Of a stretch of 64,000 nt of DNA, positions 9,393-61,840 are shown piece by piece. The stretch's first letter is position 1. Every line of letters begins with the position of its first letter. Below the pieces are notes generated by a model, which did no database searches, was not told the DNA's origin, and was given only the letters and a program-made list of their open reading frames with translations. This stretch comes from Amphiscolops sp. MND2022 (taxonomy: Eukaryota). Location of the stretch: the NCBI GenBank assembly GCA_964187785.1, contig OZ076417.1:16678001-16742000 (forward strand), in the 5' to 3' direction. A program made the position numbers and the translations under genes.

Positions 9393-9476
9393 TGTTAGTT
9401 ATTTATACTCTGGTTTTTGGTATGGAATCAATTAAACATAGTCAAGTTGGTTCAGCTTGGACTCTTGAATTATATT

Positions 9477-27900: not shown

Positions 27901-28359
27901 AGTTCTTTTCGTTTTTCAGAAAGTGTATCGTTGTTGTGTATAAAACGTTCTGCAAGAAGTGTAAAACGAGGATCAAATCTGGGTTCGTGACTCCATCAAC
28001 ACGTAATGGATAGTCAGCAAAATTAGGAGTAGGTGGTCTAGAGTTATCAACTGTGAAATATTCTGGAAGGCGTACTGTAGGTTGTACAGGAGTAGGTACT
28101 AAAACTTCGGAGATACGTTACCAGATAAATATGCGGTTTGTACGTCAGATGATATTAAAGATGCAGTGTCAACACCAGATGTAAAATAGGATTGTGGAAT
28201 AAATTCAGAAGAGTGTGTTTTAGAAGGTTGTGGTTGAGCGTGTTGTCTTAAAAGGCGAGAAGCTGAACTACTGGATAGTGCATTAAATTTGAGAGTAGAT
28301 GTATCAGAACTGAGTCTTCGATTAGGTAGAGGACGAAGATTATTTCGATGATGTGGTTT

Positions 28360-31300: not shown

Positions 31301-33080
31301 AGAAATGAAGCTGAATCACTATTTGCATATATAACGAGTTTAGGAATGTCTGTATTGATAGAGTCTGAAAATCGCATAAAATTACGAAGATGTGGGTATA
31401 AGAGTGGTTCTTTTGGATTATAAGGTATCAAATGGTTTCGATTAATATGAAATGTGCTACCGTCGTGTGATAAAAGTTCAAACGTTACATCTAAAACGCA
31501 ATCCAATGTTTTGTAAGGACCAATACGGAGAGTTTTAAGTTTGTCTGAAAAGTGAACATGCGTGAAATTACGTTTCAGAACAAAGGTACCAAGTGCCAGA
31601 GGTTTACCGTCATGGTAAGTTTTGATGTATGCTTGAGAGTTGAGTTTTTTCATAGTATAGTTATGTACAATAGAATAAATTTGTAACATAAAGGTTTCAG
31701 CTGCAAGGAACCATTGTGGAATAGGTTTTGAAAGTGTTTTGTAAAAAAAATGGGTTTAGGTCAGTTTTGTCATAATGAGAATGTTCTGGTAATTGGGAGC
31801 AATATTGTGATATACATGTGTTATTTTTGTTACGACTAAGATTCAAATCGGATGTTAGAGGAATTCGAGGCCTTATATGAAAGACCAATTCATGGGGTGA
31901 AACATTGAGTGCTGAAGGGGGTTGTGAATTGTGTGCAAAAGCGTACATATGAACTTGATGTGCCCAATCCTTGGGAGTGTTTTGTAAAAACATACGAATA
32001 TGTGTACCAAGGTTTTTGTTCTGTACTTCAACGAGTCAATTAGTCCAAGGGGAATAAGGTGTTCGAGGAGAGTGTCTAATACCCATAAGTGTACAAAGAT
32101 GTGCCATATCAGTGTAAATATATTCTGATCCACGATCAGTGACAAGGTATATAGGTGGACCAAATTTGACAAACCAGTGATGTAAAAGGGTTTTAACTGC
32201 CGTTTTAGCATTGTTTGATTTAATAAGGACTGGTACGACAAATTGACTATAAGCATCAACAATGACGTGTATAAAGGATTTGTTTTGTGTTTTGTGAAGA
32301 AGGAGTAATAGGACCTTCGGTATCCATTGATATACGATAGTTGAAAGAGGGAGCGTGTTCTTGAAAAGATTTTAGAGGAGCAGTATTAGTTTTCATATTG
32401 AAGTGTTTGTTGCGTTGACACTCAAGACTGTCATGTATGAAAATGGATAACCATTTTTCAAGGAGTGCAATATTATAGTATTGCGAAAAAGAATTATAGG
32501 TAATTTTAGTGCCATTATGACAATGAGCGTGAAGTTTGTTGAAAGCTGTATTGAAAAGTCTAAAAGGAAGGCAAATCCTGACATTACTATAAACTAAAGG
32601 TGGAGTTGTATTTGATTGTGTATCAAAAGAGGATTTGTTTTTTGTATATAAACTTATGAGATTTGTGCCTTCATCAATGAAAAGTTGAGAAAAGATTTTG
32701 TAGTATGCATGTAAGAAAGGAGAACCATGTATCAAAGGTGTAGGTTTAGTGTTGTGACGTATCCAGTGATATACTGTTTTTGAAACAGGGTCTTGTGCTT
32801 GTTGAAGTTGTAAAGTATGTAGGTCAACTGAAAAATCATCTGGTGGAAAGAAACCTTGAAAATTGTTTTTGTATTTAAAGAAGGAAGGGTCATAGAAAGG
32901 TAATATTTGAAACGTGTGTGTAGAAAGTTTAATAGGTTCAGTTGTATCAATAACAGAAGTTGATAATGAAGATGGTTCTTGTTTTGTGATGGTAGAAGAA
33001 CTGTTAGAAAGTGGAAGAGTGGGTGTTCGATTTGTATCATTGTTTTGATTAGTAAAAGAAAATGTAACAGACTTTGGGAT
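28360..33080 (-). repeat. Internal tandem duplication in element 2: 28360-30378 copies 30379-33080 but lacks ~690 bp (~31330-32022)
   Basis: aatattgtactatttgagtc occurs at 28361 and 30380. Duplicated ORF-track entries (29004/31018, 29689/32393, 30077/32732). Chimeric ORF 29004-29507 spans the deletion junction near 29318. Confidence 0.92.
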
Positions 33081-36006
33081 ACGAATGTATATATGGTCAT
33101 CATCATCACTAGTGTCATCAGTATCATTAAGGAGTAAAACTTGTTTATGTAAGGATTTGTTATGTTTTCTGCAAGTGTTTCATATTTGTTTTGAAACGGA
33201 GTTAAAAATTTGAACAAAAATGAGTCTAAAGGTTTGACAATAATGTCATTGCCTTTGTCATTTATACGGATAGAGAGTTGATCTGTTCCATAATCAGCAA
33301 GAATAGGGTGAGAATCATGTTTTTGACGTGGTAATTTTTCTTCGTGTTGTATTAAGTAGTGAACAGGTGTTAAAGAGTTGTTTTGTAATATAGCAAAATC
33401 TATTTGAGGTGGTAGTTGTTTTTGTTTGAGTTGACTCACTTGGAGTTCAGTTTTTGTATACGAACGACTAAGCATGTCTGCAACAGACGAATTTTTACCT
33501 GGGGTGTGAATAATTTTTAATTTCGAAAACTTTGTGAGTTGCATTTGAGCACGATAAAAACGTGGACTGAGATTTCCTTTTTTCGTGAAACAATGTAATA
33601 AAGGTTTGTGATCAGTGAATATGTGTATTGGATGTGAAGATCCAATGATAAGGAATTCATAGATTTGAAGAGCAGGTACTATATCAAAGAGTTCACGATC
33701 TAATGTAGAGAGTTTTTGTTCTTGTGGATTAAGTTTCCGAGAATTGTAAGAAATAGCTTTCATTTTATTATTGTCATTAAGTTGGAAAAGGACAGCGCCT
33801 AGTCCGATTAAGGAAGCATCAACTGTAATGAAAAAACGATGTTTTGAATTAGGTATTGTAAGTTCGGTATCAGAAGTAAGAGCGTTTTTTAGTTTGTGAA
33901 AAAGTGTTTCATGTTCAGTAGTCCAGTAGTTCAGTAGTCCATGGAGTATTTTCATGTCGTAAGTCATAGAAAGGTTTAAGATTGATGTGGAGTTTTTCAA
34001 TGAAATTGGAATAAAATTTAAGTGCACCTATGAAACTCATAAGGGCAACTTTACTAGTAGGAGAGGGAATTTTATGAATTGCATCAACTTTAGAGTGCAT
34101 AGGTTTGATTGTATTATAACCAATTTCATGTCCAAGAAATCTAACTTTGAGTAACATGAAAAATGATTTCTCAGGAGCTAGTTTCAAATTATGTTTTGTA
34201 CTGATAAGGTAAAATTGATCAATCAGTTGGAACATATGTTCTTTAGAGTTAGAAAGTAATAGAATGTCGTCAATATAAATGAAGCCTTGTTCTATAAGAG
34301 TTTTAAAGAAGGAAGACATTTGTTTTGTAAAGTAGTTTGGGAGTCCTTTAAGTCCATGAAAACCTCTAACAAAAGCGAAGAGCTAATCACCTGACGAAAA
34401 ACTAGTAATTTTTATGGTTTCTTCATCGAGAGGAGTGTGAGCATACGCATACATTAGGTCTATAGCAGATTTGTACTTTTTATTTGCACGCGCTAAGTGC
34501 GGAGCAAGTGGTTCTATAGGCCAAGATTCATCAAAGTGTTCTGTATTAGAACTTAGGTGTCTGGCGTCTAAAACACATTTGATAGAGTCACCTTTGGGTA
34601 TAATAATGAGGGGGTTTAGGTAAGTTGTACCATAGTTAGGTTTATCTTCAGGAGAAGAGCCAATTTGTTTAATGATGTTATGTTTTTCTAGTTCATTAAG
34701 TAAGTTATTGAGTTTTTCTCGGTAATGAATAGGTACTTTAGAAAGACGTTGTGTAAGAAGTTGAGCATTTTGCTTTAATCGTATTCTAAAAGGAGTAGCA
34801 ATTTTGCCAACATCGTTTTTATGTGTAGCATAGCAATTTTTGTGTTTAAGTAATCAGTTACACAATGTTGCATATTGTGTATCAGAAGGTCAGAAAAGTG
34901 GAAGTTGAATTTGTTTATAATTTTAAGGTTGTCTTTTGAATACGGTAATGTAGGAAAAGTGCGAGACTTTGATCTGTCAGAAGTGGAATGAACATTGTAT
35001 ATATTGGAATGAGGTGTATCATGTATTGGAGGAGATGTCATGTATATTTGATGTTATGAAAAGTGATTTGATGAAGAGGGTATATCTTTTGTAGACGTAT
35101 TATATTTAAAAGATGGAATTGGTTCAGTTATATCTGGATGATAGGTAAGAGCTACATTGTGTACAAGGGAGTTTATGTCGTTAACTTGATAGTATTTGGG
35201 TTGTTCATTTGTAATTGGTACTTCTATAAATCCAATATGTCCTTTTGGAAGTGTTGCAATATGGTTTGTAGAGTTTTGAATAATTGTAGAACAAATATCA
35301 GGTTTGTCAGTGAAAACTTCATTGAAACTGAAAATTGTACAAAATTTAGAGGAGACTTACGTATGTGGTATCGTTGGAAAGAATTGGTTCTTGGGAGTTG
35401 TAGCAAAGTGAAGGTTATAATAGTTCTTTTTAGAAAGTGAGCAATTTTTGAAGAGTTTGGATTTAAACGTATTTGTGTTTTAGAATTAATTCGGTATATG
35501 TATGAGAAATATGGATAGTCTTTGGAAAGTAGAGACGTGAATTTAGTGGTATACGGTCGATCTTTGGATTAATGTTTGAATTATAATGTAAATTCTTGAA
35601 TATTGATGTTCTGTATATATTCTTCAAAGAATGGAGTTCCACGAATGTTATATTTGATGTCTGCACCAGCAGAAGGGATAATAAACTGTCAAGAGTTGTG
35701 TTCAAAAGCTGTATTTAAGGTAGCAGTTATATAGTGTAATATAGGAACTTCAGTTTGATTTGCAACAGTTAATGTTTTTGATGTATGATTTGTTTTATCA
35801 TTACATGTGATATTGAGGCGTTTTGCCATTGTAAGATAGGTAGGATAATTGAGTACTGAAAAGGAAGCACCGCTGTCTAACACAAATGAGATTTCTAATC
35901 TTGAAGGATGATCATTGTCATTTTGTTTTTCAGGAGTTTGTAAAAACAGAGAGTAGAACCAACTTGTAGGTTTTAAAGCATTAGCCATTTCTGTAGGATG
36001 GTACAT
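31018..36006 (-). pseudogene. pol: Element 2 pol (PR-RT-RH-IN), multiple stops and frameshifts
   Basis: PR VLDSGAS (~35860); RT IYIDDILL (~34270); RH ITVDAS, TDHKPL, ADMLSR; IN HAHCH...CQ, ISMDTEGP. Confidence 0.93.
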
Positions 36007-39200: not shown

Positions 39201-39943
39201 TTGATGTTTCTATAAAATCAAAGCTTTAAGTGGTTAATTTTTTTTGTAATGTAGAGACAATTATATGATCTGTATTAAAGTGTGTACAATATAGGAAAAA
39301 TTGATCAACAAAAAGGACTTGAAAGAAGATGGTTAAACGGATAGTGAGAATGAGTATGTATATATTTGTTATATATATATGTTTTATAAACGAGATGTGT
39401 GATATATGCCAAAGAGTCCAATGAAAAGGAAGAAAATATTGAGAATCATAAAATGTTTGGGGTTTAGAATTTCGGAATAAAGGGTACGAGAAATTGATCA
39501 AATGTTATGGCAATTATGGCAACGAAAGCAAGGAGAAACCACATGAACAAAATAATACCACCAAAATCGTCAAGAGTAAACATTTGAAAATAATTTATAT
39601 CGTGTATCAATGTATGTTATGTAAATGTATTATTAGGTCTGTTATAGATGTATCATATATGATTATGTATTATGTGTTTTGGTTATGATTTGTATTAGTA
39701 TCTGAGTCTAGTGTCTATGTGTCTATTGTCTATTTGTCTATCCCTGGGGTTGTTATAGAAGCGTTATAGTTGTGATATATATTAAGGAGTTCTATAGTGT
39801 TATAGAATAGTTGAAAAAATGTTGCAAAAGAATGATAAAGAAGGAGTTTAGGTGTAAAAAGGTGTGCCAACTCAAAGAGTTGATCCAGACGGCTAGAACC
39901 GAGTCTACTTGCAGGAATCGTCGGGTAGCACTTTAGAGAAAAA

Positions 39944-40201
39944 CAAACACGTATCGCACGTCTGCGGTTGGAACAAAAAGAATGGCCATCACGTATCACC
40001 TGTGACGGTGGTTGGAACGGAGAAGTATTTTAACCAACACGTATCACTATAGAAGTGGTTGGAACGGAAATTATTTGACCAACACGTATCACATCTTGTG
40101 TGGTTGGAACGGAGTAGAATTTAACTGACAGGAATTACGTTATAGAAGCAGTCAGAACCATGCCAACACGTATCAATTTTCTGTGAAAAATGGTTGGAAC
40201 G
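39944..40201 (-). repeat. Array of five structured 30-39-nt repeat modules in the element 2 5' leader
   Basis: Minus-strand consensus GTTCCAAC-[variable hairpin]-ATACGT-GTTGG at 39944, 39986, 40033, 40079 and 40163. Variable inner stems stay self-complementary. Confidence 0.9.
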
Positions 40202-40340
40202 AAAGGTTAAAAAGTGTAGATAAGTCGAAGAGGAGACAAAACAGTGTGTCTGACAAAAAGATAGCGAATGAGGAAGTTGAAGAAACGTGTACAATAAGAG
40301 AGGAGGCGTGAAAAGGAAGGTCGGTAGAATATTTTCTTGA

Positions 40341-40350: not shown

Positions 40351-40885
40351 TGTACTGCTTAAGAGTGTGTGTTATGGTTAGGGTTAGATGTTTCTATAAG
40401 AAGTTATTTCATCTTAAGCAGAAGCCGCTGTAGATGTTACTGGACTATCAGAATATCAGAGATCTTTTTCAATGCTTAACTAAGTCTTTCGAGGAGTACC
40501 TTTCTAATTCTTTCACTAGTTATATACTGAGAGAAAACCTATCTATTGAGAGGTATAGTAAACTCTGATTAGTTAGTTATCAGGATATACATCAACAATT
40601 TATCTGTCATTCATAACTGTCTAAATGAGGAAGCATCGCTAAATCTATTATAGATCAGTGGGCTAGTATCTCAATGATGGAGCATTCGCTAAATAGATTA
40701 AAGATTAGTGGGTTACCATATCAGATTACTGAGAGTATTTATTAAACAGATTAGTGGTAATAATATCGGGATGGTAAGAGCATTCACTAAATAGATTTCA
40801 GGATGTCATGTGTCAATATGTCAAATAGAAAAGTTCTAGAAAGTTCTGTAAGAAAACTTTTAAGGTCATGTATCATGGTATCACA
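40351..40885 (-). repeat. Element 2 5' LTR (535 bp)
   Basis: Direct repeat of 20881-21414, followed by TSD CTGG. Confidence 0.96.
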
Positions 40886-43450: not shown

Positions 43451-44528
43451 CATTCATGAAAACAATCTGAGTTTGGCAAATGATTCATTAATTTGGGGTG
43501 TCACAAATGGTAAAATCGAGAAATCACTTAGTAAGGATGCATCTTAATTGATGGCTACCTTTTGCACTTCTAAAAGCGAAAATATGAAACCAAACATTTA
43601 CATGACTTCATCTTCCAATTAAAACAAATAATGAGGCATCGAAAGGAAGGGGGTTAGACAGTTTATAGAGTTTCAATAAATTTGTTTCTCGAGGCTGCAT
43701 CTGTCGTTCTCTTTCTTCTCATGCAAAACTGAACTAGTGCATCTATGAGGCTGCGACAGAAACCTTCTAATTCAAGGTCGTTCACTTACATCCGATGACC
43801 AAAAGTATTTTTTCACCCTTGAACTTGACAAAAAAAGGAAAAATCCTAATAGAACAACTCATATAAGAACTAAAATACTGTGAACTCCTACAAAGAAATA
43901 AAGAAATCAACCCCGTGGTTCATGGATGGAACTTTTGATGTTCAATACACGTCCAGCGTATGACCTTAGATCATCAACCGTGACCAATTTTACATGAGTT
44001 TCACAACTGTATGAGCCCAAAGCAGTAAGAAAGTTCTTGATACTCCGTGACTTTTTTGTTTGTTTCTCGTGAGCTTTTATTTTTGGGTATTTAAAAGTCA
44101 TGGCGCTTTTTGAGTCTCGAACCCGGCGCTGATCATACACGTTCCCTTTGTTTATTTGTGATTACAGCTATAAATTGACTGAAATTTTGAAAAAGAAAAT
44201 TCCGTAGAACGAGATAATTGAAAGTATGTCTTCAAGTCTTCATCTTTTCTTTCGTTTGATGTTTCGAGCACCATGTTAATTTTGAGTGTTGTCTAGTGAC
44301 TTCGAAAAATCGTCAATCGCCTCAAGTCAACATTGAATAAAGGGTGCCTGACGTTGAACTTTGTGAGTTTCTTCAACTGATTGCCGAACGTGACTTTTTA
44401 GCGTGATCCATACAAAACCTAATGTCTTCAAAATTGGTTCAAGTAGTACGTAGGAACTTACACTCGGTTGAAGGCGCCTTATATTAATGAACCAGTACAA
44501 CTCACTTGTGGCAGCCGGAACTGCTTAT

Positions 44529-44863
44529 TGATATACTTGTGAATTATATTCGATCATTTACCTATAATCTATATTCGATCATTCCCCTCCCTCCTCTTCG
44601 CTTGATGTCCAGATTAGATCTATGTTTTCTGAATATTAATGTAATCAAGCCATAGCTAATTTGTATTCAATACTATACTCAATATTGTCAAGCATCAATC
44701 TGATTTATATCCTGACACAACGAAATTAACTCTTCACCATCAAGTTGTCTTCCCTTGAGACCTTACACTGCAGCTCTGTTAGCGTCTCTTTAAAGTACTG
44801 CCCCTTTTGAAATAATTTATCTAAATTCTGATAGCTTCCAATCACCCAAAACAAAAAAGTACT
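44529..44863 (+). repeat. Element 3 5' LTR (~335 bp)
   Basis: tgatat...cgatcatttacctataat...caaaacaaaaaagtact aligns with 61185-61513. Confidence 0.88.
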
Positions 44864-44924
44864 TTAACCACAATCCTTTTTCTTTCCTTCCTTTTTCCTC
44901 TTAATACAATATTTTCTTCTTTCC

Positions 44925-45253
44925 GTACTAATCACAAAAGTGATTCGATATCTTTCATATCGGTACGCAATTCTTCTTTTCTTCTGTACTAATCACAAAC
45001 AGAAGTGATTCGACATAACGTCGGTAACCATTCAAAGTGGTTCGACCTCGTAGTCGGTACAAACAATCCTTCTGTACTAATCACCAAAAAATCATTCAGC
45101 CTTGAAGCTGGTACAACCATTATTCTGTACTAATCACCATTGAATTGATTCAGCTACATGCTGGTACATCAACTCTTTCGTACTAATCAAGTTGATTGGA
45201 CTTTTGTTGGTACTCTCTAGTGCTAACCTCTTGATTCGACCTTTTGTCGGTAC
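44925..45253 (+). repeat. Array of ~7 structured repeat modules in the element 3 5' leader
   Basis: Consensus GTAC-TAATCAC-loop-GTGATT-CGAC-loop-GTCG-GTAC. Units at 44925, 44986, ~45026 (partial), 45074, 45127, 45180 and 45220. Confidence 0.9.
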
Positions 45254-46073
45254 ACGTTTTTGTCTCCTTTTTTTCTATAAATTTGTACTCCCAGTTTAAA
45301 ATGTATAATCTCAATTATGCATCTCAAGACTCCGTATGTACTCTAATGATTATATCGTTTTTGTGTGGCCTACTTGCAATTGTTTTTCTTGTCGTCGACA
45401 AATCAAGATTGATTTCATTCCCCGATAACTTTTCGCTCTTTAATCAATGTTTCTGACCGAAAACCTTGCTACAAATATTTTTTTTGTCTCATACATATTT
45501 GCTCTGCTTGTTTTTCGTATGCTCCTTGTTGAAAAAATATTCATCACACTGTTCACCTAAACTTAATCTTTTTAATTCCCTCTCCTTTTCCCATAACCTC
45601 TTTTTCTTTGCAACCTCCCACATTCCCCTACCACATTTCCAATTCCTTTTCGTTTCTCTAACTCTAATTTCTTTAAACTTTTCCCCCTCCACCACTATTA
45701 CTCATACTCACCACCTCATCGTCTTTAACCCTTTCTACTATATTTTTAACCTTCTCACTTCACAATCCTCCATACAATTTTGCATTTGCTCCGTTTATCC
45801 TACCTCCTTCTACCAAACTGTTCTTAAATTTCGTTTAATCTATTTTTTTAAACTCAAACCCTCTCCTTGCAATTTTTCAACTCCAGCCCATTTCCTTCAT
45901 TCTTTCCTTCACCACTCTTTTCCTCCACCGTAAACTCCTCCCCGATTATACTGATTTTGGCCATAAACTCTATCTTTTTTTAACAATCCAACGCCTCCTC
46001 CAGAACCACCTATTGATCCTGATATTCTCTTCAATCGTATTTCATTAAGTTTTCATCCTCACCGACAATCATA

Positions 46074-48990
46074 ATGGCTACTACGCCTCCTCTTCTTATT
46101 ACTCTCCCATTTGCAGTTGATCCCACCCGCTCTCGTCTTTCTCGCGAAAACACCCACATTTCAACAACATTCCTTAAAAATCTTTTCTATAGATCCACTG
46201 TTCCTCTTTCTTTTGAAACATTCCCTGAAGATATTTATACTATCCCTCTTATTCGTGGGTATTCATAATATCCCTCTTATCTCCCACTTTTATTACATTG
46301 ACACTCATTCTCTAACTTCTACTCCTGATGACCCTTCTTTCTCTCTACCTTTCACCTCTCCTTTCCACGCTACTAATATCTTTCGTAACAACATTTACCC
46401 GTCCAATATCTACATTCCGATCGCTCATGTCTTCACAACTTTTCTCAAAAACTTCTCGGAGAAGAATATTCTCCTACTTCAACATTTTTTCACTCCTCCA
46501 CCCCTCAGCTATACAAACACTCCTTACAAAGGAAACTTATTTTGAACTCCCCAGTATTGAACATCTTCGTACTGTTGAAAAAAATCTCCATCATTGGCTT
46601 GTTACAGATATTCTTCAAATGCACCACATTCAATATCAATTCTTTCAAAATTTAACCTTAAATACTCACACTAAAGAACAAATTCGAATATACACCTTGT
46701 TTCTTAGACTTTTTTTAGATATAACTACCAACTCTTTTGGGACTCTAAGTTCCAATCAAGACGCTTGTACTAATTTTCTTTCTCAAATTTCTAAAGATGA
46801 ACTCCTTCCTTTTGTTGCAGCTCCGCTAATCAACACCCTTCCTTCTATGACCTCCGTGATTTCCCAGTCACTCATTTTGAATTCCTCACTTATGATACTC
46901 AAAGTATCAACAAACGGCTTGAACTTCCTTCTCCTGTCAGACCATATAATACATATCTCCCTCAAACGTTTGCTTCAAATACCACTTCTGAGGTTTCACT
47001 CCAAACTATCTCTCCTGCTTCTAGTGTGTTAGTAAACAACACACACTCTATTGGTTATCCTCCTCCAAATCTTGACCCACCTCCTTCACCTCCTATGAAT
47101 TCTATTCCTCTTTCTAATAATCTTATCACTACTCAGACCACCAATTCTCATTCTCCACTCCAGTATAATTCTCCTTCAAACACTCCACCACCAACGGTTA
47201 ACAATACAATCATTATTCAACCAACCACTTCTCAAATACACCGATCCTTTCCTCCAATTCCTATTTCCTTCCCCTCTGTAATAACTACTCAACCTCAATC
47301 TCACTCTTCTAATACATCTCTTCCGCCAACGCTTTCCTCTAATCAAAACCACCCGTTTCCCTTGCCTACTTCTCAGAATCCTCCTCAAACATCTAATTTA
47401 CCTCCTGCCTCCACATCCTATGACCCTTATGCATCACTCAATCCCAGCTTTCATCATTCACTTAAGTCTTCCTTTCAACCTCCTAACCTTCCTCCTAACC
47501 CTTTTCCCACCGCCTTACACCCCCACTAATCCTTTTCATACTCTCACTTCTCAATCTCCTCCTCTAGGTTTACAAATGGCTCCTTGTGCCGCTCTCTCCA
47601 ATCCTATTACACTTTTTGATAGCTTGGACCATACGTATCCTCCTGGAAAGTTCTTAGCTCATCTTAGCGCACGTGTAATATTTAAACTTGGAACTTTACC
47701 CCTTGACATCCAATCGTATTCAACCTGGCACTCCAGACGTATGTCTCTCCTTTATTGTTCCCTCACAGGAACTGCCTCTAATTAGTCTGACCGCCTTCCT
47801 CAAGGTTATAAAAACGATTGGTCTTCTTTCCTCTAAATTTTCAGAAAACAATTCTCTTGAAAATGTTTGACACTATGCTTTAAAAGTTGAAACTCTTGTC
47901 AATCAAGTATGGGACAATGAATAGCCATCCACCATAAACATTAAATGTAAAGAAATTTTTACTCGTGTTTTTCCAAAAAGATTTTGCCAATAAATGCCAA
48001 GTTAAACATATTTCAAGTTCCCCTCGAACCTTCAATTCCCTTTCACTCTCTTGTCAAAATGGTTGATTCCGATGATATTACACTCGAAAAGATGAAACCA
48101 CAACAACTTTCTTTCAAAATAAACACTCTTTCCGATACCTTTAACCAAAATACCTCTATTTCCGATAAACTTTCTGAAACTTTACAAATACAAGCTGTAG
48201 ACCCTAATGATACATCTAAACCCCACTTTGAAAAATATTGCTCCTTTTGTTAAAAAAAAACAATCATTCTTTCTCAACATGTTATCGAAGAATCAATATG
48301 TTGAAAGAATCTGAACCTCAATCCAAATCGCTCACGCCATCCTTCAACAACATTTTAAAACACCCTTCAATAAATATGACAATCAAACTCTTCGTTACCG
48401 CAGTCGTAGCAATAGTAATCTCACGAGAACCTGGCTATAAATCTTGTTCTCATCTTCGTTCAAATTCTCGCCCAAGATAAAATCATAACCACTCTTCTCA
48501 AAACCACTCTCCATATTATGGTCGTAGTCGATCTAGATATGTCCAACATTACAAAAACTCCTCACGTTCATAATACTCTTCTCGCCCTTATAATAATTCA
48601 ACCTCATCTCGTATTCCATATAAACCTTACCCTCGTTCTCGCGAACGCTCCTTCGGCTATAACAATTCCTCTATTAGACGCTATAAATCACCATACCGCT
48701 CTCCTTCTAAACCACGTTCCGATCGCTATTGAAGTTGATCTCACTCTTACTCAAGGAGTTATTCAAATTCCCAATATAAACAAACTATCAAACTTACTCA
48801 ACAACCAGTTCGCAATAATCATCACTCTTGCTCAACAGAACCTAAATTTGAAACAAATATGTATCATCCAAATACCTCCTCATGTTAAAGATGAAATAAT
48901 CAAGCTAACGCTCTCACTCGTTCTACTTGGTTCGTCAACCTGTACAATTGTGAACAACCTGAAGAAACTTCTTCACCTTCAAAACTAAAA
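46074..48990 (+). pseudogene. gag: Element 3 gag-like region, fragmented
   Basis: HIQYQFFQNLTLN; FDSLDHTYPPGKFLAHLSARV; LTGTASN; LEPSIPFHSLVK; KYCSFC...NHSFSTC; RS-rich tail. All parallel element 2. Confidence 0.8.
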
Positions 48991-51900
48991 TTTTTATTCC
49001 TGCTAGATAGCAGCGGTTCTATATGGGTTTGAATCTTCCCACTTTCACAATCTTAGCTGATCATTTTCTCAAATGTTCAAAACCAACCCCTCAAAATGAT
49101 GAAATTAAAACTTCTACAGTAGCTAATAAAGCTGAAGTTCCTATTTTATTTCATGGAAGTACTCGAACTATTGTCATTCCATTAACAGTTGCAAATATTA
49201 AATAAATTATTCTTGGAACTCCTATCTTTGAAAAATATGTTGAAACTCTTGATATTGAACATAAGTCTCTCACATTTAATACACCTCATGAATCTCGCGT
49301 AAACACTCTTCCTTTTACAGCCCATAAAGAAAACAACTAAACTTACTTTTCCAACATCTATACCACTAAGGTTAAACAAAAAAAAACATATTTCAAGTCA
49401 AACACCTCTCAAGTCATTCATTTTCCAATTCAACCTTGCCTTCCTTTAACCTTTCACACCTCTGAAAATGAGATCATTTTACCATAAACCCCACATCTAT
49501 ATTTTAAAACGCGCTTCAACTCTATGTTTAATTTCCTCCAAGTTTCAAAACTATAAAACCGAACCTAAAAATTGTTCTGTCAAATTTCAAAATATTACTC
49601 ATCACTGGGTACTACTCACCAGGATACATTGACTATATTCAAGTCCCTGCAACTAATATTGAACCACCACACTAAAAAGTTATTGATGTCAACCCTTTGA
49701 TACACGCCATATTTCATACATACTATCCTGACTTTTTCGAACCGAAACCTCCTGTTCGTCGTTCTTTACCCACTTCCATCTTTACCACAATCTCCAGATA
49801 TTCAACACTTTCTCAAAAAGATCAAATTCCAATACTCTGATGTCACTGATGACGAATATTTAAAACTTTGCTCCATTTCGGTTAAATATCAACTTTGTTA
49901 TGCTACTCATCGTAATGATTTTGGTAAAATCGCCACTGCTTTCCGAATTCGCCTCAAACCAAATGCCAAACTTCAAACTCAACTACCCACTAAAGTCCCA
50001 ATCCATTATAGATATAAACTTAAGAAATTACTCGATGAACTCGAACACCATGATATCATTAGACAAACTAGCTCCACCCATTCTGACAAGTCCGTTTATG
50101 GTACCACATTTTCAATCCTCTCAATATTATCCCCAAAGGACATACAATCAAAACAGTTCTTGATGCTCGACATTTAAACTCTAACAATGATCAATCCTTT
50201 TCAATCTTGGCATATCGAACCTCTAGCTCCTCAACTTGCTCTTGCAAATGAAAAATTCAAATCCACAATTGACCTCATGAATACCTTTTCACATGCTCCT
50301 TTAGATGAAGAAACCATCTCTCTAACCAGTTTCTCCTCTGGAGATAAACTCTATGCTTTCATTCGAGGATTCTATGGTATAATTTTTCCGAAAATTCATT
50401 AATCAAGGCTTTGCACTTGTTTATATCGATGATATTCCTCTTCTTGCTCACACCAAAACTCATATAATAGAATTAATTGAACAATTACACCAGATCTGTT
50501 GCTCCAATAATCTCAAAATAGCTCCTGAAAAACTATTTTATATTCTCCTAACTGTCAAAATTCTTGGACATGAAATTGGCAAAAATACTATTAAACCAAT
50601 TTCATCCAAAGTTGACGGTATCCAACAAAATGAAAATTCCTCTTCTGAAACAGAACTAATGCGGTTCATTGGAACAATGAACTTTTACTCTAAATTTATG
50701 AATAAACTCCACATCTCTCTTTAATCTTTTCATATTCTCCTTCATGGCGATATTCCCTCTAAATGGACTCCGGAATTAGACAAACTCTTTAATGACATTA
50801 AAATTTCCCGTTCAAAAGATGCTGAACTGGCAAGTCCTAATACCACATATCCATTTTATATTACAGTTGACGCTTCCATTTTTGGTTTAGGTGCAATAAT
50901 ATTTCAACCCAACACCGGTAACAAAATGCAAGTTATATCTTATAATCCTCGCATTTTAACCACCCAAGAACAGAAACTCTCAATATATGACAAAGAACGA
51001 ACTTTATGCTATAACTTTTGCTCTCTTACAAAATGAATTTCTTATTATTGGCACTAAATATCCAATCAGTGACTTTACAGGTCACAATCCTATTCTTTTC
51101 CTCTTTACGCGTAAAAGAAATTTAACCCCAAGGCAGTATAAAACCCAAATGAAGTTAACCAAAATCTCTAACCTCCAAACTGTCCGCAGAGCTGGAACAA
51201 ATCTAACTGTTGCTGATATGCTCAGTCGATACAATTCTCAAATTAGAAATAAAATATGTCATTTACAACACAAAATTCTTCCTGCTCATTTTGACTTTAT
51301 TCAACTCAAACCCAATATTTCATTAAAACAAATCCACTACCTTGTTAAACATGAAGATGTCTTACCCACTCAAAAAATGATTCCCATCCAATCTTAGTTA
51401 ATTATGGTGATGATCAGTTTACACTCCGTATTTTAGACAAAGGTAACACTGTTACTTATACTCCTCTAGACTCATTCTCCTTTACATCTGTTTCATCCTT
51501 TACAGCTTCTTAGAAGTACAAAAAACCCGTAAAGAATAAAATTAAAACACTACAAAAAAATCCTCTTCTAAATGAAACTGAGTCATATGAAGATGATGAT
51601 CCCGTTTCTAAAAGAATTCCTCAACAAAAATCACAACAACCGCAATCACCCCATGTTATCCACTCTCTCCTGGCTGAAATCCAACACCACCATTTCGACG
51701 GGTTTCAACTCTCTCATGATATTCTAATTAATATCGAAAGCACTCAAACTCCAAAATCGATATTGACTCCCCTTTCTTTACTGAAATCTCTCATTCTAAT
51801 GCTGTAATCTAAACCCCTTTTAAGTCTACATCTACAAATTCACAACCATTTTTTGATCCTTCCTTCTTTGCTCACTGTAAAACTTTTGGAAATGTCTTTC

Positions 51901-53500
51901 TTTCCTCTGACACCTTTTTGGCCATACCCAATCTCCTTCAAGCTGAAAAGGATGATGATGTCCTTTCCACTGTATATACATGACTCAAACAAAAACAAAG
52001 ACCTCCTCTTGTAACCCCAGATAATAAAACTAAATCTTTCCTCTACACTTATTGTAAACAGTTTCAACATTGATACATTGACCCAACTTCACACCTCATT
52101 CAATATTACACTCCACCTCATTCAATATTACACTCCAAATTCTCGTATTTCAAAGAAATCTTTATCAACACTCAACCCTCTCTTAACCAAACTCAGATCT
52201 GTTTACCATACAAACTCTTTTATGCTGCTTTTCACAAAATTCATTCACATGGTCACTCTGGTGAAAAACACTCTATTAAAACTTTTAACCAATGTTACTA
52301 TATTGCGCACCTACCTTTATGGTTTTCTATTTTCATTCATGATTGTAATGAATGTCAAACACACAAACACTTTCCTATTGAACCTAAAAACATCTTCCCT
52401 CCACTACATTTTTACGAACAAGCAACTCACTTTAATTACAGAAATTCCATGGACACTAAAGGACCTATTTCTCCCACGTCTCAAGGAAATTCTTACATTT
52501 CTGTCATAATTGACGCTTTGGGTAATTTTGTTGTCAATTATCCTGCTCCTCAAATCTCCTCTAAATATGTTGTTCAAACATTTCTAAATCATTGGAATAC
52601 AAAATTTGGCCCACTGCAAAAACTCGTCGCTGATCGAGGTACTGAATAAGTTAACCAAGATATGACTCACCTTTCTTCTCTATTTATTATTAATGATTCT
52701 CCACGAAGTGCATACTCCCCTTGGACAAATGGCTCAGTCAAAGTTCAAAATCGAAATCTTGGCACTCACCTCAGTCTTTTCTTGCCAAATCTTCCAGATA
52801 ATTGGTCAGTTCAAACTCAAATGTATGCTTATGATCATAATACCACTCCTCTATCTCAACTTAAGCTTTCTCCACATCAGTTTTTTTTCATACTCATCCT
52901 CGTATTCCCCTAATTTTTTCTCTTAATCGCACACGTGACTCTTCTAAATCCTGTATCGCAACATATTGCTAATCTCTTCCTCATACACATTATAGTGATC
53001 AAGACCTCAACCCTTTTTATCACTCACTCATAACCAAACCTATTTCCCCATGGCTCCTCTCCGCTGAGCATGCGATGCTAGAAGTTTACTCTACTGTTCA
53101 TCGCCATATTACAAACAAATAAACCTCACAAAAATCTCTACCTTTGAAACAGTACAATTAAAACAACTCCATCTTAACAACTTTGTTATACACACTAATT
53201 TGAAACCTGTTAAATTCTCTCATAAAGTCAAACCCCTTCGTTTGGGTCCCTACAGCACCTCTCTGATGTCACTTATGAACTTATGGCCCAAGATGGTTCC
53301 ATATTTCACTCTCAACAAAATCACAATTTACCATATTATCCCAAAGAACCTCTTATTTTTAAAAATCTCCGTCAATATCATTCAACACCCTTTCTTCTCA
53401 ATAACCCTGATACTGAATCGTATCAAGAGATTCATTCTAAATCTCCTCGCTCTGATGATAATAATCCCTTTGAACAATTACAATCGCACACTTCTATAAA
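48990..53500 (+). pseudogene. pol: Element 3 pol (PR-RT-RH-IN), fragmented
   Basis: Degenerate PR LLDSSG (~49000); RT SLTSFSSGDKLYAFIRGFYG and VYIDDI (~50420); RH ITVDAS, ADMLSR; IN HSHGH...CNECQ, MDTKGP, VADRGTE. Confidence 0.9.
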
Positions 53501-55611
53501 ACCCATTAATTTCTCCGAACCTTATGCTCATCTTCCTCCTACATACCAAAACTTTCCTCATTCTCTTCTTTCACACGATCAATTTGATGATTTCTCAAAC
53601 TCTACTGACTCCGAAATGCTCTCAAACTCCATAATCCTATATATCATTCCACTTCCTTTTCACAAACATTCCCTCGTATTGCTGACTCGCCTTAATGTCT
53701 ACCTAAACCTTCCTCCGATACTCAAACTTCACCCACTCATATTCGAGCTCCCCATTTTTCGTATAATTTACGCTCACTTATTTCTAAAGGCTACATCACT
53801 TCGAAAACTGTTACTAGTTTCCCACCTTGAATAATGCTTCATTTCGTTAACTGGATCATTTGTCAAACCTGTCATTGTATCCCGTCTACTCATTGACCCG
53901 TCTTTGTCTTCTGCCTAGTCACCTAATTAGGCTTGACGTTTGACACCTCTAATTGCCTTAGCCATTTTTTCACGTCCTTTCTGTTGATTTTGCTCTACAA
54001 TTTTTAATTGAACAGTTAATACACACAATAATAGTAAGTGTTCATCTTTTGCATTGACTCTCTCTTTTTCTCTAAACACACCTCTCTTCGCCTACCATCT
54101 TGATCATCATTTCTCCCAGATTTTTCTCCTGCCCTGTTTCCATCCTGGATTCTTCTGTCACTCCATCTTCTAGTTCTATGAACTCAAGCTCCTCTGCTTC
54201 CTCTTCGCTTTCTTCCGATACCATTAACTCTTCTCGAATTCCTTCTCTAATAATAAATCATCCTCCTTTATTTCCAATCCCTATCACTCCTTCCTTTAAC
54301 ACTACCCCCACTCATACATCCCAAATTCAAGCTCCTACTCAAACTCCACAAACCAGTCCTATTGCTTTCCGAACTCAAAAATCTTTAACTATTACTATTT
54401 CTGATACTGAAATTCCATTAGATCCATTCGTTGTCACTCCAACTCACCCTCCACCTGCTACTTCTCGTCATACACCTGATCCCAGTGATATTGACCCTAT
54501 ACTCCTTCGCAATATTAACAAACCTCGTACTCGTAAAAACCTCCTATTCCTACCTCCATCAAAGACCGCCGTAGGGACTCTCCATTTGATCCTTCTCTCC
54601 CGCTTCCTCAACCTTGCTCCCGCTCTCAACCTGGACATTCTCTTCCCTCTCCTAAACTTTTACAAATCCCTGTTCTTGAATCTATCGAAATCCTCAGTGA
54701 ATAATTTTCTTTGAGTGACGTTGATTCTACTACCTTTTCTTTTTTCTATCCTCGAATTCCTCCTTCCAATTCAGCCTCTAAACACACCACTTCTTCCATA
54801 GATGATCTCTTGGATTCCACCACCGAGTCTACTACCCGTAGACAACCTCGTCATAGAAATAGTCTGTGCAATAACCCTCTTTTTCCTCTTTCCCCCTCTC
54901 ATTCTTTTGCAAGCACTAATTTGTCTTTACTAAGACACCACGTCTCTCTCCTCTAAGAACAATTTTCCCACCTCTGATGTTGACGATGCCTTTTCCCAAC
55001 GATCTTCATTTTCTTCTTTCAGTCATACTGGTCCTCTCTTTTCTCGACCCACTTCTCAAAATACCAGTGTTCTTTCTTCGAGGTCTCATCTCCAAAATTA
55101 ACCTCAGCACTGATCAATACTCTACTCCCCCTACCACTAGTTGTGTTGACTATCATCTGTTTGCTAAAAGTACTCTTGTCACTAAATCTAGTCAAGATCC
55201 CCGATTTTTATACATTGCCACTCATAAACTAAACTCTACTACCTATTTTTCTGACTAACGTCCTCGAAAAGAATTTCACTGATTGGACACTACAAACTTT
55301 GAAATCAAAATTGAAATCATTTCTAAATTCCATAATTCAAGTCCTCATCCTATTCCTTCTCATACTACTGGTACTTTTAACCCTACCCCTCACCCTTTTG
55401 TTGCCACTAATCTTAATGCTTTTAAGGGATCATCCTCCGTTCCGTCTTCTTCACGGATGCATTACTTTCTCAAACACACTCACCTTCCTCCAATATACTG
55501 CTCAGTTTTAGTTTCCTCTCATGACTTCCTCTTTCAACCTCTCAGTCTTTTTCCTTTTTCTCCTCCTCAAATGATTTTCCCCTTAATCTCTGATTTGACC
55601 CTTCTACTGAT

Positions 55612-57700
55612 ATGGTAGAACCTAATCATCCTCATATCTCTGATCTCTTAGTATCTCACTATGATTGTTCTAAACAACACAACCTCTGTCAGTTTAGTTT
55701 AACCCGAGTACAACTTGTGCTCAAGAACTTTCAGCACTTGAAAGCACTCGTGCTAGTGCTAACGTTTTTAGTCGCCCTAAAGCTAAACGCATCAAAGTTC
55801 GGACTTTATGTTAGTTTATTGGACTCAATGAAGTTTATGTTAAACGCAAAAAAGTTTGTTCGTGCACTATCTGATTACAACAATCGCCGATATGATTGTT
55901 CTGATTACCACCAAAAAACTGTGGAACTCCCTCGTACTTTAGACTCCACGGATTGCAAAAATGCTATCCGTCATCTAAATGGTACTGACAACCCTCAACT
56001 CAATGCTTTGATTATAGCAACACTTTTAGGTTCTTTGATGATATCAACAAACAACGCTTTCTTCGAACAAAACAACCTCCTTTTAGAATAACTAAACTTA
56101 ACACAGTTCACTATGGTGCTTTTGCTTGGATAACTAACACCCAACTTGTTTTAAATTCCACTATTAAAGAAAAAGCTGTTCGTTGGGATCGCTATGAATA
56201 TATAATCGAAAAAGACTGTTGGCCTTCAATCGTTCGTGAAATTGAGTTAACATATGAAGATAAAGATAACAAATTATTCTATCATGGTCATACTTTACCT
56301 TGCTTCCATGACGATGGTTATTGCAAACCTACCATTTTAATTCCATTCACAATTTTTTGGTTCCCCGAAGATCTTTTTGTTTAATTTTCTTCATCCACTC
56401 CTTTAATGGACGTATGTCTAAATTGATTAATCGTTTTTGGCTTGAAAATGAACACTTCTTGAAAATGAACCATAACAAGTCTCATATTTTATCTGAAACT
56501 CCTTACCATGACTCTAAATTTCAAACTCGCCTGTCTCGATCTGAAACTTTCCCCGAAGGTAAAGTGTTATGCAATAAACCCACACCATTATATACAACTC
56601 TATATCTTGACCTCTTTATTTTATATGAAGAAGTATTCAACATGCATACTGGTAATCGCAATCCTCTTCAACTTCCTGAAGATGAACAATATACCAAGCT
56701 CTCTACTCAACTCAACTCTGGTAAACTCGTACACACTCAAAACCAACTCATTTTTCCTGCCCTAAACTCCTCTTAGAATTTCGCCACTATTGATTATTAA
56801 GCTCATATAAACCACAAAATTGATTATTCTATTAATCACGTTTTTAAAACCATGTCCATTGCTGAATTGAATACTATTCACACTATTTGTGAAGTTGAAA
56901 GAACCCAACTTTTAACTATTCTCGCCATGTCCGGTAAAAATCCAAATCTTGCTGGTTTTCTCCTTATCCAAAATTGTAGTAATTTTCTATTTGTTTAGAG
57001 TTCTACTGCCTGGATCTATGATTGCCCTCGCCACCTTTCTCCTTTATATATAGCTGAACAATGTTATGATAAAATCCCCGTCTCTTATCTTGACACTGTT
57101 ATGTATGTTGACACAATTACACGTCAAACATTTATTCATGCAAATCAAATTCAATGTGAAAATATCCCACAAAATGTTATTGCTCTCGACTCTGATACTG
57201 ATCAATATTATGTCAAAACTCCACACTCTATTAAAAAAAGGCCCTCTTCTATTATTTGATCCAACTCAAATTCAAACTGCTATTAGCCCAAACACCTTTA
57301 CTGTCCAAGATGCAGGTATTTATTCTCAAAAAAACTCAAACCTTTTTGGAATCGAGTTTTATTTACAAACTACTTCGACAATACTCTAATACTTTCAGGT
57401 AAAGCTATTAGTTATGAATTTATGAGTAAGCAATCATCTGAATTTTTTCCAAATAATCCTTATAAATCACTCCGATTTGGTCTTCATGAATATAGGTTAC
57501 ACTTGACTCCTTTTCTTCTCTTGAATGGTTCACCGATGCTTTCATTAAACTTTTTTACTACTCATGCTATATTTTAACTCATTGTGAAATATAGTTTTCC
57601 ACTGCTCTTATCTTTCAGTTCGCTTTCAACGCACTCCTTAGAAATTATCGCTCCCTTACTGTTAAGAAAATTCCTAAAATACAAATCTTTCTTGTTTCTG
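55612..57700 (+). pseudogene. env: Element 3 env (class III fusogen-like), fragmented
   Basis: SHYDCSKQHNLCQFSLTRV; VRAKAK..KV; DCKNAIRHLNGT; LPCFHDDGYCKPT; AWIYDCP; CYDKIPVSY; hydrophobic TM-like segment near 57530-57640. Colinear with element 2 env. Confidence 0.7.
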
Positions 57701-58569
57701 CTTTTGGTTGAGGTTTTTTTGGAACTGTAACCAAAACAATGATGACTGCTTTGATTAAGTCACCTGATTCTAACTCCGCCTCTGATGATTCTGAGCCTCC
57801 GTCCCTTTCATACCATAAAACTAAAACCAAAAATACAAAAGCTCATAAATACAAACCTAACAACAAATCTAATATTTTAAAATCTTGAGAATAAAGATTC
57901 CATGCAAACCTCTCCAAAAGTCATCTCCTAAAAAATCCTCCTTCCTTAATTTTTCATCACCAAATCCTCTTATTATCACTCCTCCTTTACAATTTGTTGA
58001 CAATACTTCACCTCCTCCTCCTAAGTTTAATTAATATACTAATCCACCTAATAATTTTTCACCTCGACACACCCAATTAACATCTTTGTCTTCTCCTTCT
58101 TATCACATAACTCCACACCTCCTGAAGATACCAATATTGACAACTCCTCTAATAATTCCCCCGTCCACAATGTACGGCAATCAACTGAAGTTTTTCCTCC
58201 TATTCCACCACTTATGAAATTTAATGACATTCCAATAATCTCTGTGGCTTTTTTCTGAATCATTGTAACCCAAAGAATTTCCTCCTTTCTCTTCTTTCAC
58301 CCATCAATAATTCTCCTTTTCTTCTCATCGCAGTCGCTAATTCTGAATATCTACTTTTGTTTCTACAAAGCATTTTTCACTCACCCATCAAAAATTTTTC
58401 TCCAATCACTTTGTCTTGCTGCATCTGTAATCTCTTCATTGCATACTTTCTACATTTCACGCCACTTTCCAAAAACAACGCACATTTTTACTCTGTAAGA
58501 AATCTTTGCCTCTTAGACATCTCTATTTCGCATACTCACATTCATATTTTAATATCATTTTTCAGAATG

Positions 58570-61130
58570 TCTTCCTCAGTTTGTGAAGAAATACTCTTCT
58601 CTAGTATTGCTTCACTATCTCCTCTGTTGTCTTTTACATCTGGTACTCTTGAACTCCCTCATTCTTCTGACCCGATCAATATCGAAGTCATCACAACTCC
58701 TGAACCCACCAATGAAATTAAACCTTCCTCTTCCAATACTTCAATTGTAAATAATAATCAACCCACCTCCTCTTCTCTTAAAACTCGTCACGCACCTACT
58801 CCTCCACCTAATCTCCTCCAAATCACTATTGACAATACCACGTATACCGTTCCCACCAAGAAAAAATATAATATACTCGGAGATCCTGTTTTCAATGAAT
58901 CTGGTATTCTCCCTCCTACTTCAAATCCACAAAAAATCCTTCTGAATCCAATACAATGACAGACGAATTTCTTCGCATTCACCCTCATAATAAAGCAAAT
59001 CTTCCTTCTCTTTATTCGACTTCAACCACTTATAAATTTCGATTCCCCCAAGATCGAAACTTTTATCACTATGTTGCATATGCCTCCAAAAATTTTGGAC
59101 AACTCTCTTTCTGGCAAAATAAACGTCTTCGTTTCTTCCAATTCCAATTTAATCTTCTCAAACCTACACAGCATGATTTTAACACTATTGCCAACGATAT
59201 TAGCACTGCTCCTTCTGTCAAAAAACTTCACTACCAAACCTATAAACTTTTTCTTGTACAAAAACCACCCAAATTTTCATAATTCAAAATCACAAATTCA
59301 CCCTCCATTATTGTATCATTCTCATTATTCTTTAAATCACCTCTTTACTATTAATACAACCCGTACCTACAATCCAATCAAACCATATTACATCCTTTCT
59401 CCTTATCACGACCCCACTCGCTTTTTTTGTTCCCCAGGAGTGAAGCTCTCAATCTCAATGATGATTTTTTTACCTACACAGATACCCAATAATGTCTCGA
59501 AATGTTTCCCCAAAATGTGTAAAATAGTCGAAACTCCCCTTGATCATCTTTCTCGCTCTCTTTACACATCACTTGGGTCTAAACATCACTCTATTGCCCA
59601 TCTAAATTATATTACGGCTAAACTCTCTTCCTTCATTCTCAATAAACAATATAAGTATTTCCCCTCCACGCAAAATATAACTGAAAAAATTCAAAATGCT
59701 CTTCCAAAACACATCCCTTCTTCTACTGATTTTTCAAATGCTCCTCCTACTGCTATAGTACCACCGATTCCCTCATACTATGTTCTTCAAACTGTCAACA
59801 CAAATGTTTGCATCAACTCCTTCTCTTGACACTGACAAAATTTTAACTGAAATCCTGAACCTCCTTCGCCCACATATTGAACCTTCCCTTAATACTGATC
59901 CTTTTGTCATCCTCAATCATATTTTTCACACCTACCGCACTCTTCAAAATCTCTTACACCTCCATAATAATGATATTCAATTTCTCACTCTTTCTTCTAT
60001 TCATGTCACTGATTACCTTAAAAAACTTGTTCTTCTCCAACTTCATACATTTAATGTCTCTTCTTAATTCATCCTAATTCTCCTCTCGCCTTCAAAGTTA
60101 TACCTTTCCTTTCTCACTCATCCACCTTTGGTATATTTACGAAAAATTCTTTTCGTCTCCACTCACAATTTTTTTCACTTTCAAAAACTTTTTCCTTCTA
60201 ATTCATTTTCAGAGCTCTTTTTTTCTTCCAATTTCTTGTTTCATTCATTTTCTCCTTGTTTCAAATTTCAAGTTTATCATTTCTTTTATTGTCTCACTGA
60301 CAAGCCCCAATAAGACCTCGCATAAATGTCGCAATGACACTTATTGATTGTTTTCTTTGTCTTATTATCACTTTTGACAAAAACCTCCACCTACTCGCTC
60401 TTACAAATGACACAGAATAGTACATCATTGAACTCTTCCCATCAAAAATGTCATCTTTTTCACGAAAAATTATCTTCCTATTTTCAAATGTTTCGATTTC
60501 AATCCAACTGAAAATCGTACGTGACACACTTGCTTCTTGGATACCTCTTTCTCATTCCAGTTTAATTCTATATGGTGTCGCTCAAAATAACTTTTCTCGA
60601 TCGCTTGTGATGTATGGAAGTCTATAAATCTTCCCAGCATTAGTGAAAAACTTCATCGAATTTTCTTTCTCGAAGCCAGTTTATGAAACATAAACAAAAA
60701 ACCTTTCCATCGAAAGTCTTCAGTTATAAATCACCCTTCATATATCAATCAATGCCTCCTCATTCAAAATTTTCAAAAACCCCACGGAAGATAAATGTTG
60801 AACAGAACTTCATAAAAATGAAATGACATAATCTTAAAATAACATGTAAAAAACTATAATTATTCTGATCCTTATACCTTTTAAACTTCACTTCAACTGT
60901 ATTGGAACATTAAAACCTATTTCCGTTCCTTTTAATTGGACTCAAGATGTAAATTGCATATCCGCCCAAAACTCACGTAAGGAAAGAATAATACATTTTG
61001 ATACCCTACAACTTGATGAAAAATTTGAACATAGACTCCTATTCTTACAACTTCTCTCAGTCCTGTACACCTTAAAACCAACTCTCGAAAACTATAAAAC
61101 CACCTCAACTGATTTAAACAAACCTCTAAC
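58570..61130 (+). pseudogene. Element 3 post-env ORF4 and ORF5 remnants (unknown function)
   Basis: ORF-track pieces 58357-58959, 58956-59282, 59071-59829 and 59780-60067 share short motifs with 21663-24904 of element 2. Confidence 0.6.
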
Positions 61131-61184
61131 CCAACTCTTGATAACCTACCTTGGTATAACATTTTTTTTCAAAACCCGGTCGGA

Positions 61185-61513
61185 TGATATGCTTGTAAAA
61201 TATATACGATCATTTACCTATAATATATATTCGATCATTCACCCTCCCCCCTCTTTGCTTGATGTCTAGATTAGATCTATGTAATCTGAACATTATTGTA
61301 ATCAAGCTAATTTGTATTCAATACTATACTCAATATTGTAAAGCATCAAACTGATTTAAATCCTGACACAACAACATTAACTCTTCACTATCAAGATGTC
61401 TTCCCATAAGACCTAATACTGCAGCTCGGTTAGCATCTCTTTGAAGTACTGTCCCGTTTGAAATAATCTATCTAAAATTTGATAACTTCCAACCACCCAA
61501 AACAAAAAGTAGT
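61185..61513 (+). repeat. Element 3 3' LTR (~329 bp)
   Basis: Aligns with 44529-44863. Confidence 0.88.
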
Positions 61514-61840
61514 TTATTATTTGATGTTATTCCAATTTTTTCTGAAGTTCGAAGTTCTGAAGACAATATTTTCATTTGAAGGATCATCGAAAGAACTTGA
61601 GAGAAAGAAAACTCTAATGTCAAAGACATTCGAAAGAGTTTTTACCTGCAAAGGTCTTCAAAAAATTTCTGAATTCTTGAAAATCTATGACAGCCGAATT
61701 TGGCATCTTCGATGATCATGCCATCGTTATATAACTTTTTACTCACAGTTTCTCGTATCTTCCAGCAGCTTATCTAAAATGAACCATTATTAACCTCTAA
61801 GTTTCCTTCAAAATTTTTGAAAAAAACTAAAGTAACTAAC

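Follow-up and report, generated by a model that had tools for sequence, protein, structure and literature searches.

A tandem array of covarying hairpin modules in the leader of an env-bearing Ty3/gypsy element of Amphiscolops: a possible packaging signal

The window analysed, a stretch of 64,000 nucleotides of contig OZ076417.1 of Amphiscolops sp. MND2022 (positions 16,678,001 to 16,742,000 of the forward strand; assembly GCA_964187785.1), contains three LTR retrotransposons: E1 (about 2559-17350, minus strand), E2 (20881-40885, minus strand, about 20 kb) and E3 (44529-61513, plus strand, about 17 kb). A Pfam scan of 31 frames recovered gag, reverse transcriptase (RT), RNase H and integrase, arranged in the gypsy order, with pol matches above the curated cut-offs in E2 and below them in E3. 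Frame 25438-26337 of E2 matches a viral fusion glycoprotein (PF24664, E 5.7e-11) and a CCHC knuckle is present in the E2 Gag. At the protein level E3 could be matched to E2 piecewise (tblastn), the matches beginning in the first long frame and extending as far as the frame behind env, with 24-70% identity in the matched stretches. Both are broken copies; the sample is one decayed copy per family, with seven related repeat units in E3. The RNase H frame of E2 has 578 related proteins, in clusters of up to 313 members (ENA records), and protein-led locus searches in viral contigs and prokaryote genomes retrieved no relative. Following env, E3 and E2 have a related frame (58960-59826, plus strand, and 23482-24189, minus strand, respectively; 32% identity over 96 aa), which had no Pfam assignment and for which an Atlas search was uninformative (best 0.81); it is a candidate accessory protein.

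Several other features of the window were observed. The gag frame of E1 (14287-15744, minus strand) begins within the 2-kb LTR and runs through the primer site, and for that reason the 3' LTR of E1 carries a copy of the gag start (2446-2967, minus strand). Inside E1, on the opposite strand, three long frames of another element, possibly a DNA transposon, are found at 6380-9389 (plus strand; no Pfam match to these frames). In E2, integrase and the sequence downstream of it are duplicated internally (28359-30378, minus strand; 97% identity to 30379-31330 and 32022-33081), and a unit of about 920 nt is present in two tandem copies (93% identical) at 463-2309.

E3 is a decayed env-bearing Ty3/gypsy element, errantivirus-like by its layout and domain matches. 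Its 5' LTR (44529-44863, plus strand) is 87.6% identical to 61185-61516 over 339 columns, and 33 of the 318 ungapped columns differ; the comparison places the 3' LTR at 61185-61513. A 4-nt target duplication (44525-44528 and 61514-61517) was read by eye together with the ends. The LTR termini are GT/CT instead of CA, whereas E2 has a CA end and a primer site starting with TGG. In this copy of E3 the primer-site position and a pyrimidine-rich spacer occupy 44864-44924, and no primer site starting with TGG was found next to the 5' LTR (44865-44940, within 75 nt) nor, with respect to self-priming, any stretch of more than 6 nt that matches the LTR. The missing site may reflect decay or another way of priming, such as by a half-tRNA. 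In the available text of a survey of ancient errantiviruses, a tRNA primer site is given for 1151 of 1512 elements (PMC13524379).

The repeat array that is the subject of this study (44925-45253, plus strand) starts 62 nt past the 5' LTR, ahead of the first long frame, in a leader of about 1.2 kb. The array is followed, still ahead of that frame, by a small hydrophobic ORF (45346-45456; 36 aa, or 51 aa when read from the ATG at 45301; hydrophobicity judged by eye). Downstream follow the broken first long frame and gag region (46074-48250; tblastn to E2 frames, one of which matches PF03732), with a zinc knuckle that is broken by a stop, a broken pol with RT, RNase H and integrase in gypsy order (49011-53400; PF00078, PF17917, PF00665 and PF17921, all below the curated cut-offs, and tblastn to E2) and a broken env-like frame (55594-57591), pieces of which have 24-70% identity to the region of E2 that contains the PF24664 frame; the four env pieces of E3 itself had no Pfam match. 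E2 has a hydrophobic ORF in the corresponding place (39464-39583, minus strand), the length being 36-39 aa in both elements, with no established homology between the two. Their position is like that of sORF2 in the MDG1-group elements, although sORF2 is longer (63-107 aa, with a myristoylation motif, in the accessible part of PMC11952523).

The array consists of seven units, each a module of 35-45 nt, in which a 4-nt palindromic strand is followed by a single U, hairpin 1 (5-6 pairs), an adjoining hairpin 2 (4-6 pairs) and the palindromic strand again. Unit 1 (44925-44966) has the closing helix, the U and both hairpins, and folds well on its own (z -3.82); in context it alone is predicted to form a stable three-way junction. 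Units 2 (44986-45027) and 3 (45021-45060) overlap at 45021-45027 and have a common closing helix, and therefore the array comprises six closed modules, one of which is double; this fused module (44986-45060) has four hairpins on one closing helix and is predicted to form a five-way junction (MFE of 44980-45066, z -3.0). Unit 4 (45074-45114) has a single C-C mismatch, in hairpin 1, and unit 5 (45127-45167) is paired throughout in the model, with a z of only -1.0 when folded alone. The 3' strand of unit 6 (45180-45213) and the 5' strand of unit 7 (45220-45253) form a 9-pair hairpin (45206-45227); unit 7 is terminal, has a degenerate hairpin 1 and is similar to the domain that ends the E2 leader. 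The initial annotation had described about seven units with a set of stem variants, and indeed all seven could be located, with the variants present.

With the units anchored on their blocks, and with units 2 and 3 taken as having one common closing helix, 81 of the 87 pair cells are Watson-Crick, two are G-U and four are mismatched, three of these four lying in units 6 and 7, the units that form the mutual 9-pair hairpin. Among 14 stem substitutions there are ten distinct variant pair states, four of which are double changes that retain pairing, at four pair positions. Hairpin 1 has one of them (in unit 3) and hairpin 2 the other three, namely one in unit 1 and two adjacent ones common to units 4 and 5, which may represent one event. 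In neutral simulations, four double changes arose with a frequency ranging from 0 in 200,000 (6 lineages, half transitions) to P 0.044 for the most cautious of the six cases simulated (2 lineages, transitions only). The six one-sided departures compare with about nine substitutions expected in the 174 stem bases from the divergence of the LTRs, and would fit that expectation. A count on a MAFFT alignment, in which unit 4 is off by one column and the fused units 2 and 3 were entered separately, was weaker, with 80.8% of 104 cells paired, five pairs changed on both sides and a covariation score equalled in 8 of 500 shuffles; RNAalifold, run on the alignment with unit 4 misplaced by one column, retained hairpin 2 only. 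Taken together, the two hairpins are supported by paired changes.

Stems and loops differ strongly in their conservation. The stems are 78% alike across units, against 34% and 39% for the two loops, and loop lengths vary (2-10 and 4-9 nt) while the junction spacing is fixed at 0 and 1 nt. The tile containing the array has the lowest z (-7.0) of the 51 tiles along the sense strand of E3 (12 shuffles per tile), and a strict junction descriptor gave two perfect matches in the array and one in the rest of the window, both strands included. Folding gave a z of -3.7 on the plus strand and -3.6 on the minus strand, and since these values are nearly equal the folding energy cannot tell which strand is used; the strand evidence from the pairs is thin (two G-U against one A-C). 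From the anatomy of the element the sense strand is the genomic RNA.

One explanation for these paired changes would be a neutral minisatellite of quasi-palindromes, in which template switching, in the course of either reverse transcription or replication, keeps the strands paired. Such switching can perfect inverted repeats in the absence of selection, tandem duplication is evident in the array (period 53) and single units fold weakly, as is the case for unit 5. This would leave unexplained why conserved stems stand beside scrambled loops and spacers, why the junction geometry is fixed and why a structured array is present at the same place in E2, and we consider it improbable.

A slightly better case can be made for repeats that act as double-stranded DNA, as an enhancer or insulator bound by transcription factors, in the manner of the gypsy Su(Hw) array or the ZAM repeats. 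This is the role described for Drosophila errantivirus 5' UTR repeats, and tandem repeats were reported in 19 of 49 LTR-element 5' UTRs (both in the accessible text of PMC3383448 and PMC8872304). The E3 repeats occupy just this 5' UTR position, short blocks are common to E2 and E3 despite the different folds, and the folding energy is equal on the two strands. However, the double changes keep pairing while altering the sequence, and the inverted half-sites are separated by anything between 2 and 10 nt where the junction spacing does not vary, which makes a DNA role rather unlikely.

The closing helix is the least certain part of the module. It is a near-invariant palindrome and shows no double change among the E3 units; being self-complementary, its strand can pair within the unit or with the next unit, and indeed with any other copy. 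Folding in context (ViennaRNA) gave a within-unit closing probability of 0.52-0.85 for unit 1 and of 0.01 or less for units 4-7, while pairing with the next unit reached 0.76-1.00 at three of the five junctions (3-4, 4-5 and 6-7) and was not predicted at junctions 1-2 and 5-6. Among hand-built structures scored with ViennaRNA, separate junctions (-45.6 kcal/mol) were better than an open chain of hairpins (-41.0) and a chain with closed ends was best (-57.9), ahead of separate junctions by 12 kcal/mol. In growing prefixes, on the other hand, within-unit closure was 0.99, 0.61 and 0.61 for units 1, 2+3 and 6, against 0.06 or less for units 4, 5 and 7, and a junction is predicted when unit 5 or the fused unit 2+3 is folded alone. 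Other observations also point toward a junction: the array opens and closes with a closing strand, the fifth pair is C-G in unit 1 and U-A in the others, and the closing helix of the E2 end domain has G-C where most E3 units have A-U. Because folding prefers pairing with the next unit at three of the five junctions, the three-way junction is unproven outside unit 1. Thus the modules, initially annotated as three-way junctions, hold for the two covarying hairpins and for the predicted junction of unit 1, and the closing helix elsewhere is only partly shown.

Strands that can pair with any other copy could also serve dimer linkage, the palindromic closing strands being swapped between two genomes, and Ty3 RNA is described as dimerising via a 5' palindrome (PMC11381356, in the part available). 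The palindromes of E3 are 4 nt in length and located in stems, not in loops, and the predicted gain from homodimer formation was no better than that of shuffles (5/30, 15/30 and 26/30 equally good), so that we give this role little credence, even less than a neutral origin.

We also found an array in the sister element E2 (39935-40206, minus strand), which starts about 150 nt past the 5' LTR (40351-40885, minus strand; 97.6% identical to 20881-21414, with the primer site starting with TGG 2 nt further). It has five hairpins, each built of a lower stem of 5 pairs, a 6-nt bulge on the 3' side and an upper stem of 4 pairs; pairing holds in 95% of 60 cells, two pairs have double changes and the covariation score was equalled in 6 of 500 shuffles. 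A possible pseudoknot of three pairs in the E2 units, 100% paired, had no double change and was not retained. The E2 leader has an end domain (39864-39931, minus strand) in which a hairpin is stacked directly on a closing helix, as in the E3 units (MFE and centroid); this domain is not unusually stable (z 0.07) and is a weak match to the E3 model (E 3.5). The statement in the initial annotation that a related element carries a different array at the same location is supported in that E2 has a structured, covarying one there, with a different predicted fold.

The two arrays, earlier considered unrelated in sequence, appear to be kin. A three-block matrix trained on E3 ranked four of the five E2 units 1, 2, 5 and 15 among other positions on both strands of the window, and one trained on E2 ranked four of the seven E3 units 2, 3, 5 and 11, likewise on both strands, with the blocks having been picked after both arrays had been inspected. 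The alignment score between the arrays was equalled by only 1 of 1035 control tiles, and that between E3 unit 7 and the end of the structured region of E2 was reached by 2 of 287 tiles; E3 units 1 and 5 were not outstanding against the E2 region (14 and 189 of 287 tiles, respectively). A latent long helix of the E2 kind is still present in the E3 units, most of which have a single mismatch among its 8 pairs. At the level of standard searches the arrays do not find each other: nhmmer gave no significant match between them (E 0.52, antisense, and E 16), and the E3 covariance model missed the E2 repeats just as the E2 model missed those of E3. On balance, these sequence comparisons make it probable that the arrays have a common ancestry, with a change of fold.

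Within the window, the E3 model found six units at E <1e-5, unit 3 was recovered in part (E 2.2) and no further match had an E value below 0.86, so no occurrence outside the elements was seen there. Single matches to the E3 motif were obtained at 1 viral-contig, 17 metagenome-contig and 1 prokaryote-genome loci, and none of the 18 inspected folds as the E3 module. Against the E3 model, 12 of the 19 loci scored 16.6-21.6 bits and 7 gave no score, as compared to 38-57 bits for the six training units; all 19 were taken as chance matches. The E2 motif was absent from the viral contigs. A bacterial promoter scan was at chance level and is inapplicable here.

Tight multi-helix junctions in a retroelement could suggest a new self-cleaving ribozyme. 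The hammerhead core contains the string CUGANGA, which is absent on either strand, as was already noticed for the hammerhead motifs when the array was first described, and the Rfam comparison proposed at the time gave no match at the gathering score in the window nor at E up to 10 in 44500-45700. Only one unpaired base is conserved, and cleavage would split the genomic RNA between the LTR and gag. A ribozyme is the least probable of the functions we considered.

The explanation that we favour, though we hold it at somewhat less than an even chance, is that the E3 array is a packaging signal, structured and present in several copies, through which Gag of the element would recognise the leader of its genomic RNA. 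The hairpins are predicted to form in the full-length transcript, with the palindromic closing strands paired either inside their own unit, giving a three-way junction, or to the following unit. Selection on pairing combined with free loops would imply a single-stranded structure that is read by shape, and a protein would read the stems and the junction and not the loops; the presence of several copies would provide avidity and could nucleate Gag assembly, and the different fold in the sister family would let each family favour its own RNA among coexisting related copies. Structured packaging signals in the leader are recognised by retroviral Gag (accessible text of PMC12789967). In favour of packaging we count the leader position, the conserved stems as opposed to the free loops, the double changes, the placement in the most structured tile, the covarying array at the same place in E2, the CCHC knuckle of the E2 Gag and the numerous relatives of its RNase H. 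Against it stand the ambiguous junction topology, the thin strand evidence and the fact that the errantivirus arrays described act as DNA. Furthermore, nucleocapsid binds unpaired or weakly paired G (PMC7395439, in the part available), and guanosines exposed for zinc-knuckle binding are scarce in the array, with only 10 G among 155 unpaired bases. Weakly paired G in the short helices may serve as nucleocapsid sites instead. The 174 stem bases of the array contain 41 G, as compared to only 9.6% G in the sense strand of E3 (46000-60000, plus strand). It is because of the scarcity of unpaired G, and because binding is hypothetical, that we do not rate packaging higher.

The main rival, which we regard as less likely than packaging and well ahead of the other alternatives, is that the fold serves as a platform on which an RNA-binding protein, either of the host or an accessory one, would dock to act in export, transport or translational switching of unspliced genomic RNA. 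The structural evidence applies to it equally, and G-poor loops with conserved stems suit a reader of shape. There are precedents in the CTE and Rev-type elements (PMC12789967) and in Spen, which binds Xist A-repeats and ERV RNA by structure (PMC7282817), both as far as the accessible text goes. The length of the leader with its small ORF and the related frame kept after env in E2 and E3 would also be in agreement with a platform, although that frame lacks an informative Atlas match. The export elements described in the available text of PMC12789967 lie outside the leader, either within pol or at the 3' end, and family-specific folds would be less expected with a single host reader.

Packaging can be extended to a broader and more doubtful proposal, which we consider rather unlikely as it stands: large env-bearing gypsy families would have a tandem RNA packaging module that switches fold on a common repeat skeleton, between the bulged hairpin of E2 and the predicted junction of two hairpins in E3, with each Gag reading its own shape, in effect a modular barcode. 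Errantivirus 5' UTR repeat arrays and structured retroelement leaders are already known; what is apparently undescribed is a covarying RNA module, repeated in tandem, whose fold is specific to the family, as no description of such a leader array was found in the literature searched (titles and abstract openings, with subscription papers largely outside). Errantivirus leader repeat arrays have so far been treated as DNA elements. If the packaging reading is true, the array offers a small testable unit for how Gag of the gypsy type selects its own RNA and how this specificity diverges; a host-protein platform or a DNA array would be a modest addition to a known theme.

Known systems resemble the E3 array in different respects. 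Like the Drosophila errantivirus arrays (the gypsy Su(Hw) insulator, ZAM, Tirant and accord; accessible text of PMC3383448 and PMC8872304) it consists of tandem 5' UTR repeats in an env-bearing Ty3/gypsy element, but those are DNA arrays for protein binding, whereas the E3 units show paired stem changes; the word 'hairpin' does not occur in the text of PMC8872304 available. The ancient errantiviruses with an HSV/gB-type env (PMC13524379, available text) have the same LTR-gag-pol-env layout and a class III-like fusion protein, which E2 matches, although E3 (17 kb) and E2 (20 kb) exceed the 14 kb limit on LTR distance of that study, and its main text, as available, does not contain 'UTR' or 'stem-loop'. 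By analogy only, the array may be likened to the Xist A-repeat and Spen-bound ERV RNA, in which a structured unit is repeated, can pair between copies and is read by shape, in that case as a mammalian silencing platform (PMC7282817, in part). Packaging sequences are imprecisely defined even for yeast Ty3 (PMC11381356, in part), and the closest comparison for the preferred reading is with the core encapsidation signal of HIV-1, a tandem three-way junction that offers many sites to nucleocapsid (PMC7395439, accessible text). Both lie in the 5' leader and have many potential protein sites, helices meeting at junctions are predicted for E3 as well, and the CCHC-knuckle Gag has its counterpart in the sister element E2; unlike the HIV-1 signal, the E3 array repeats a single module in tandem, with loops that are free and poor in G and with no loop palindrome.
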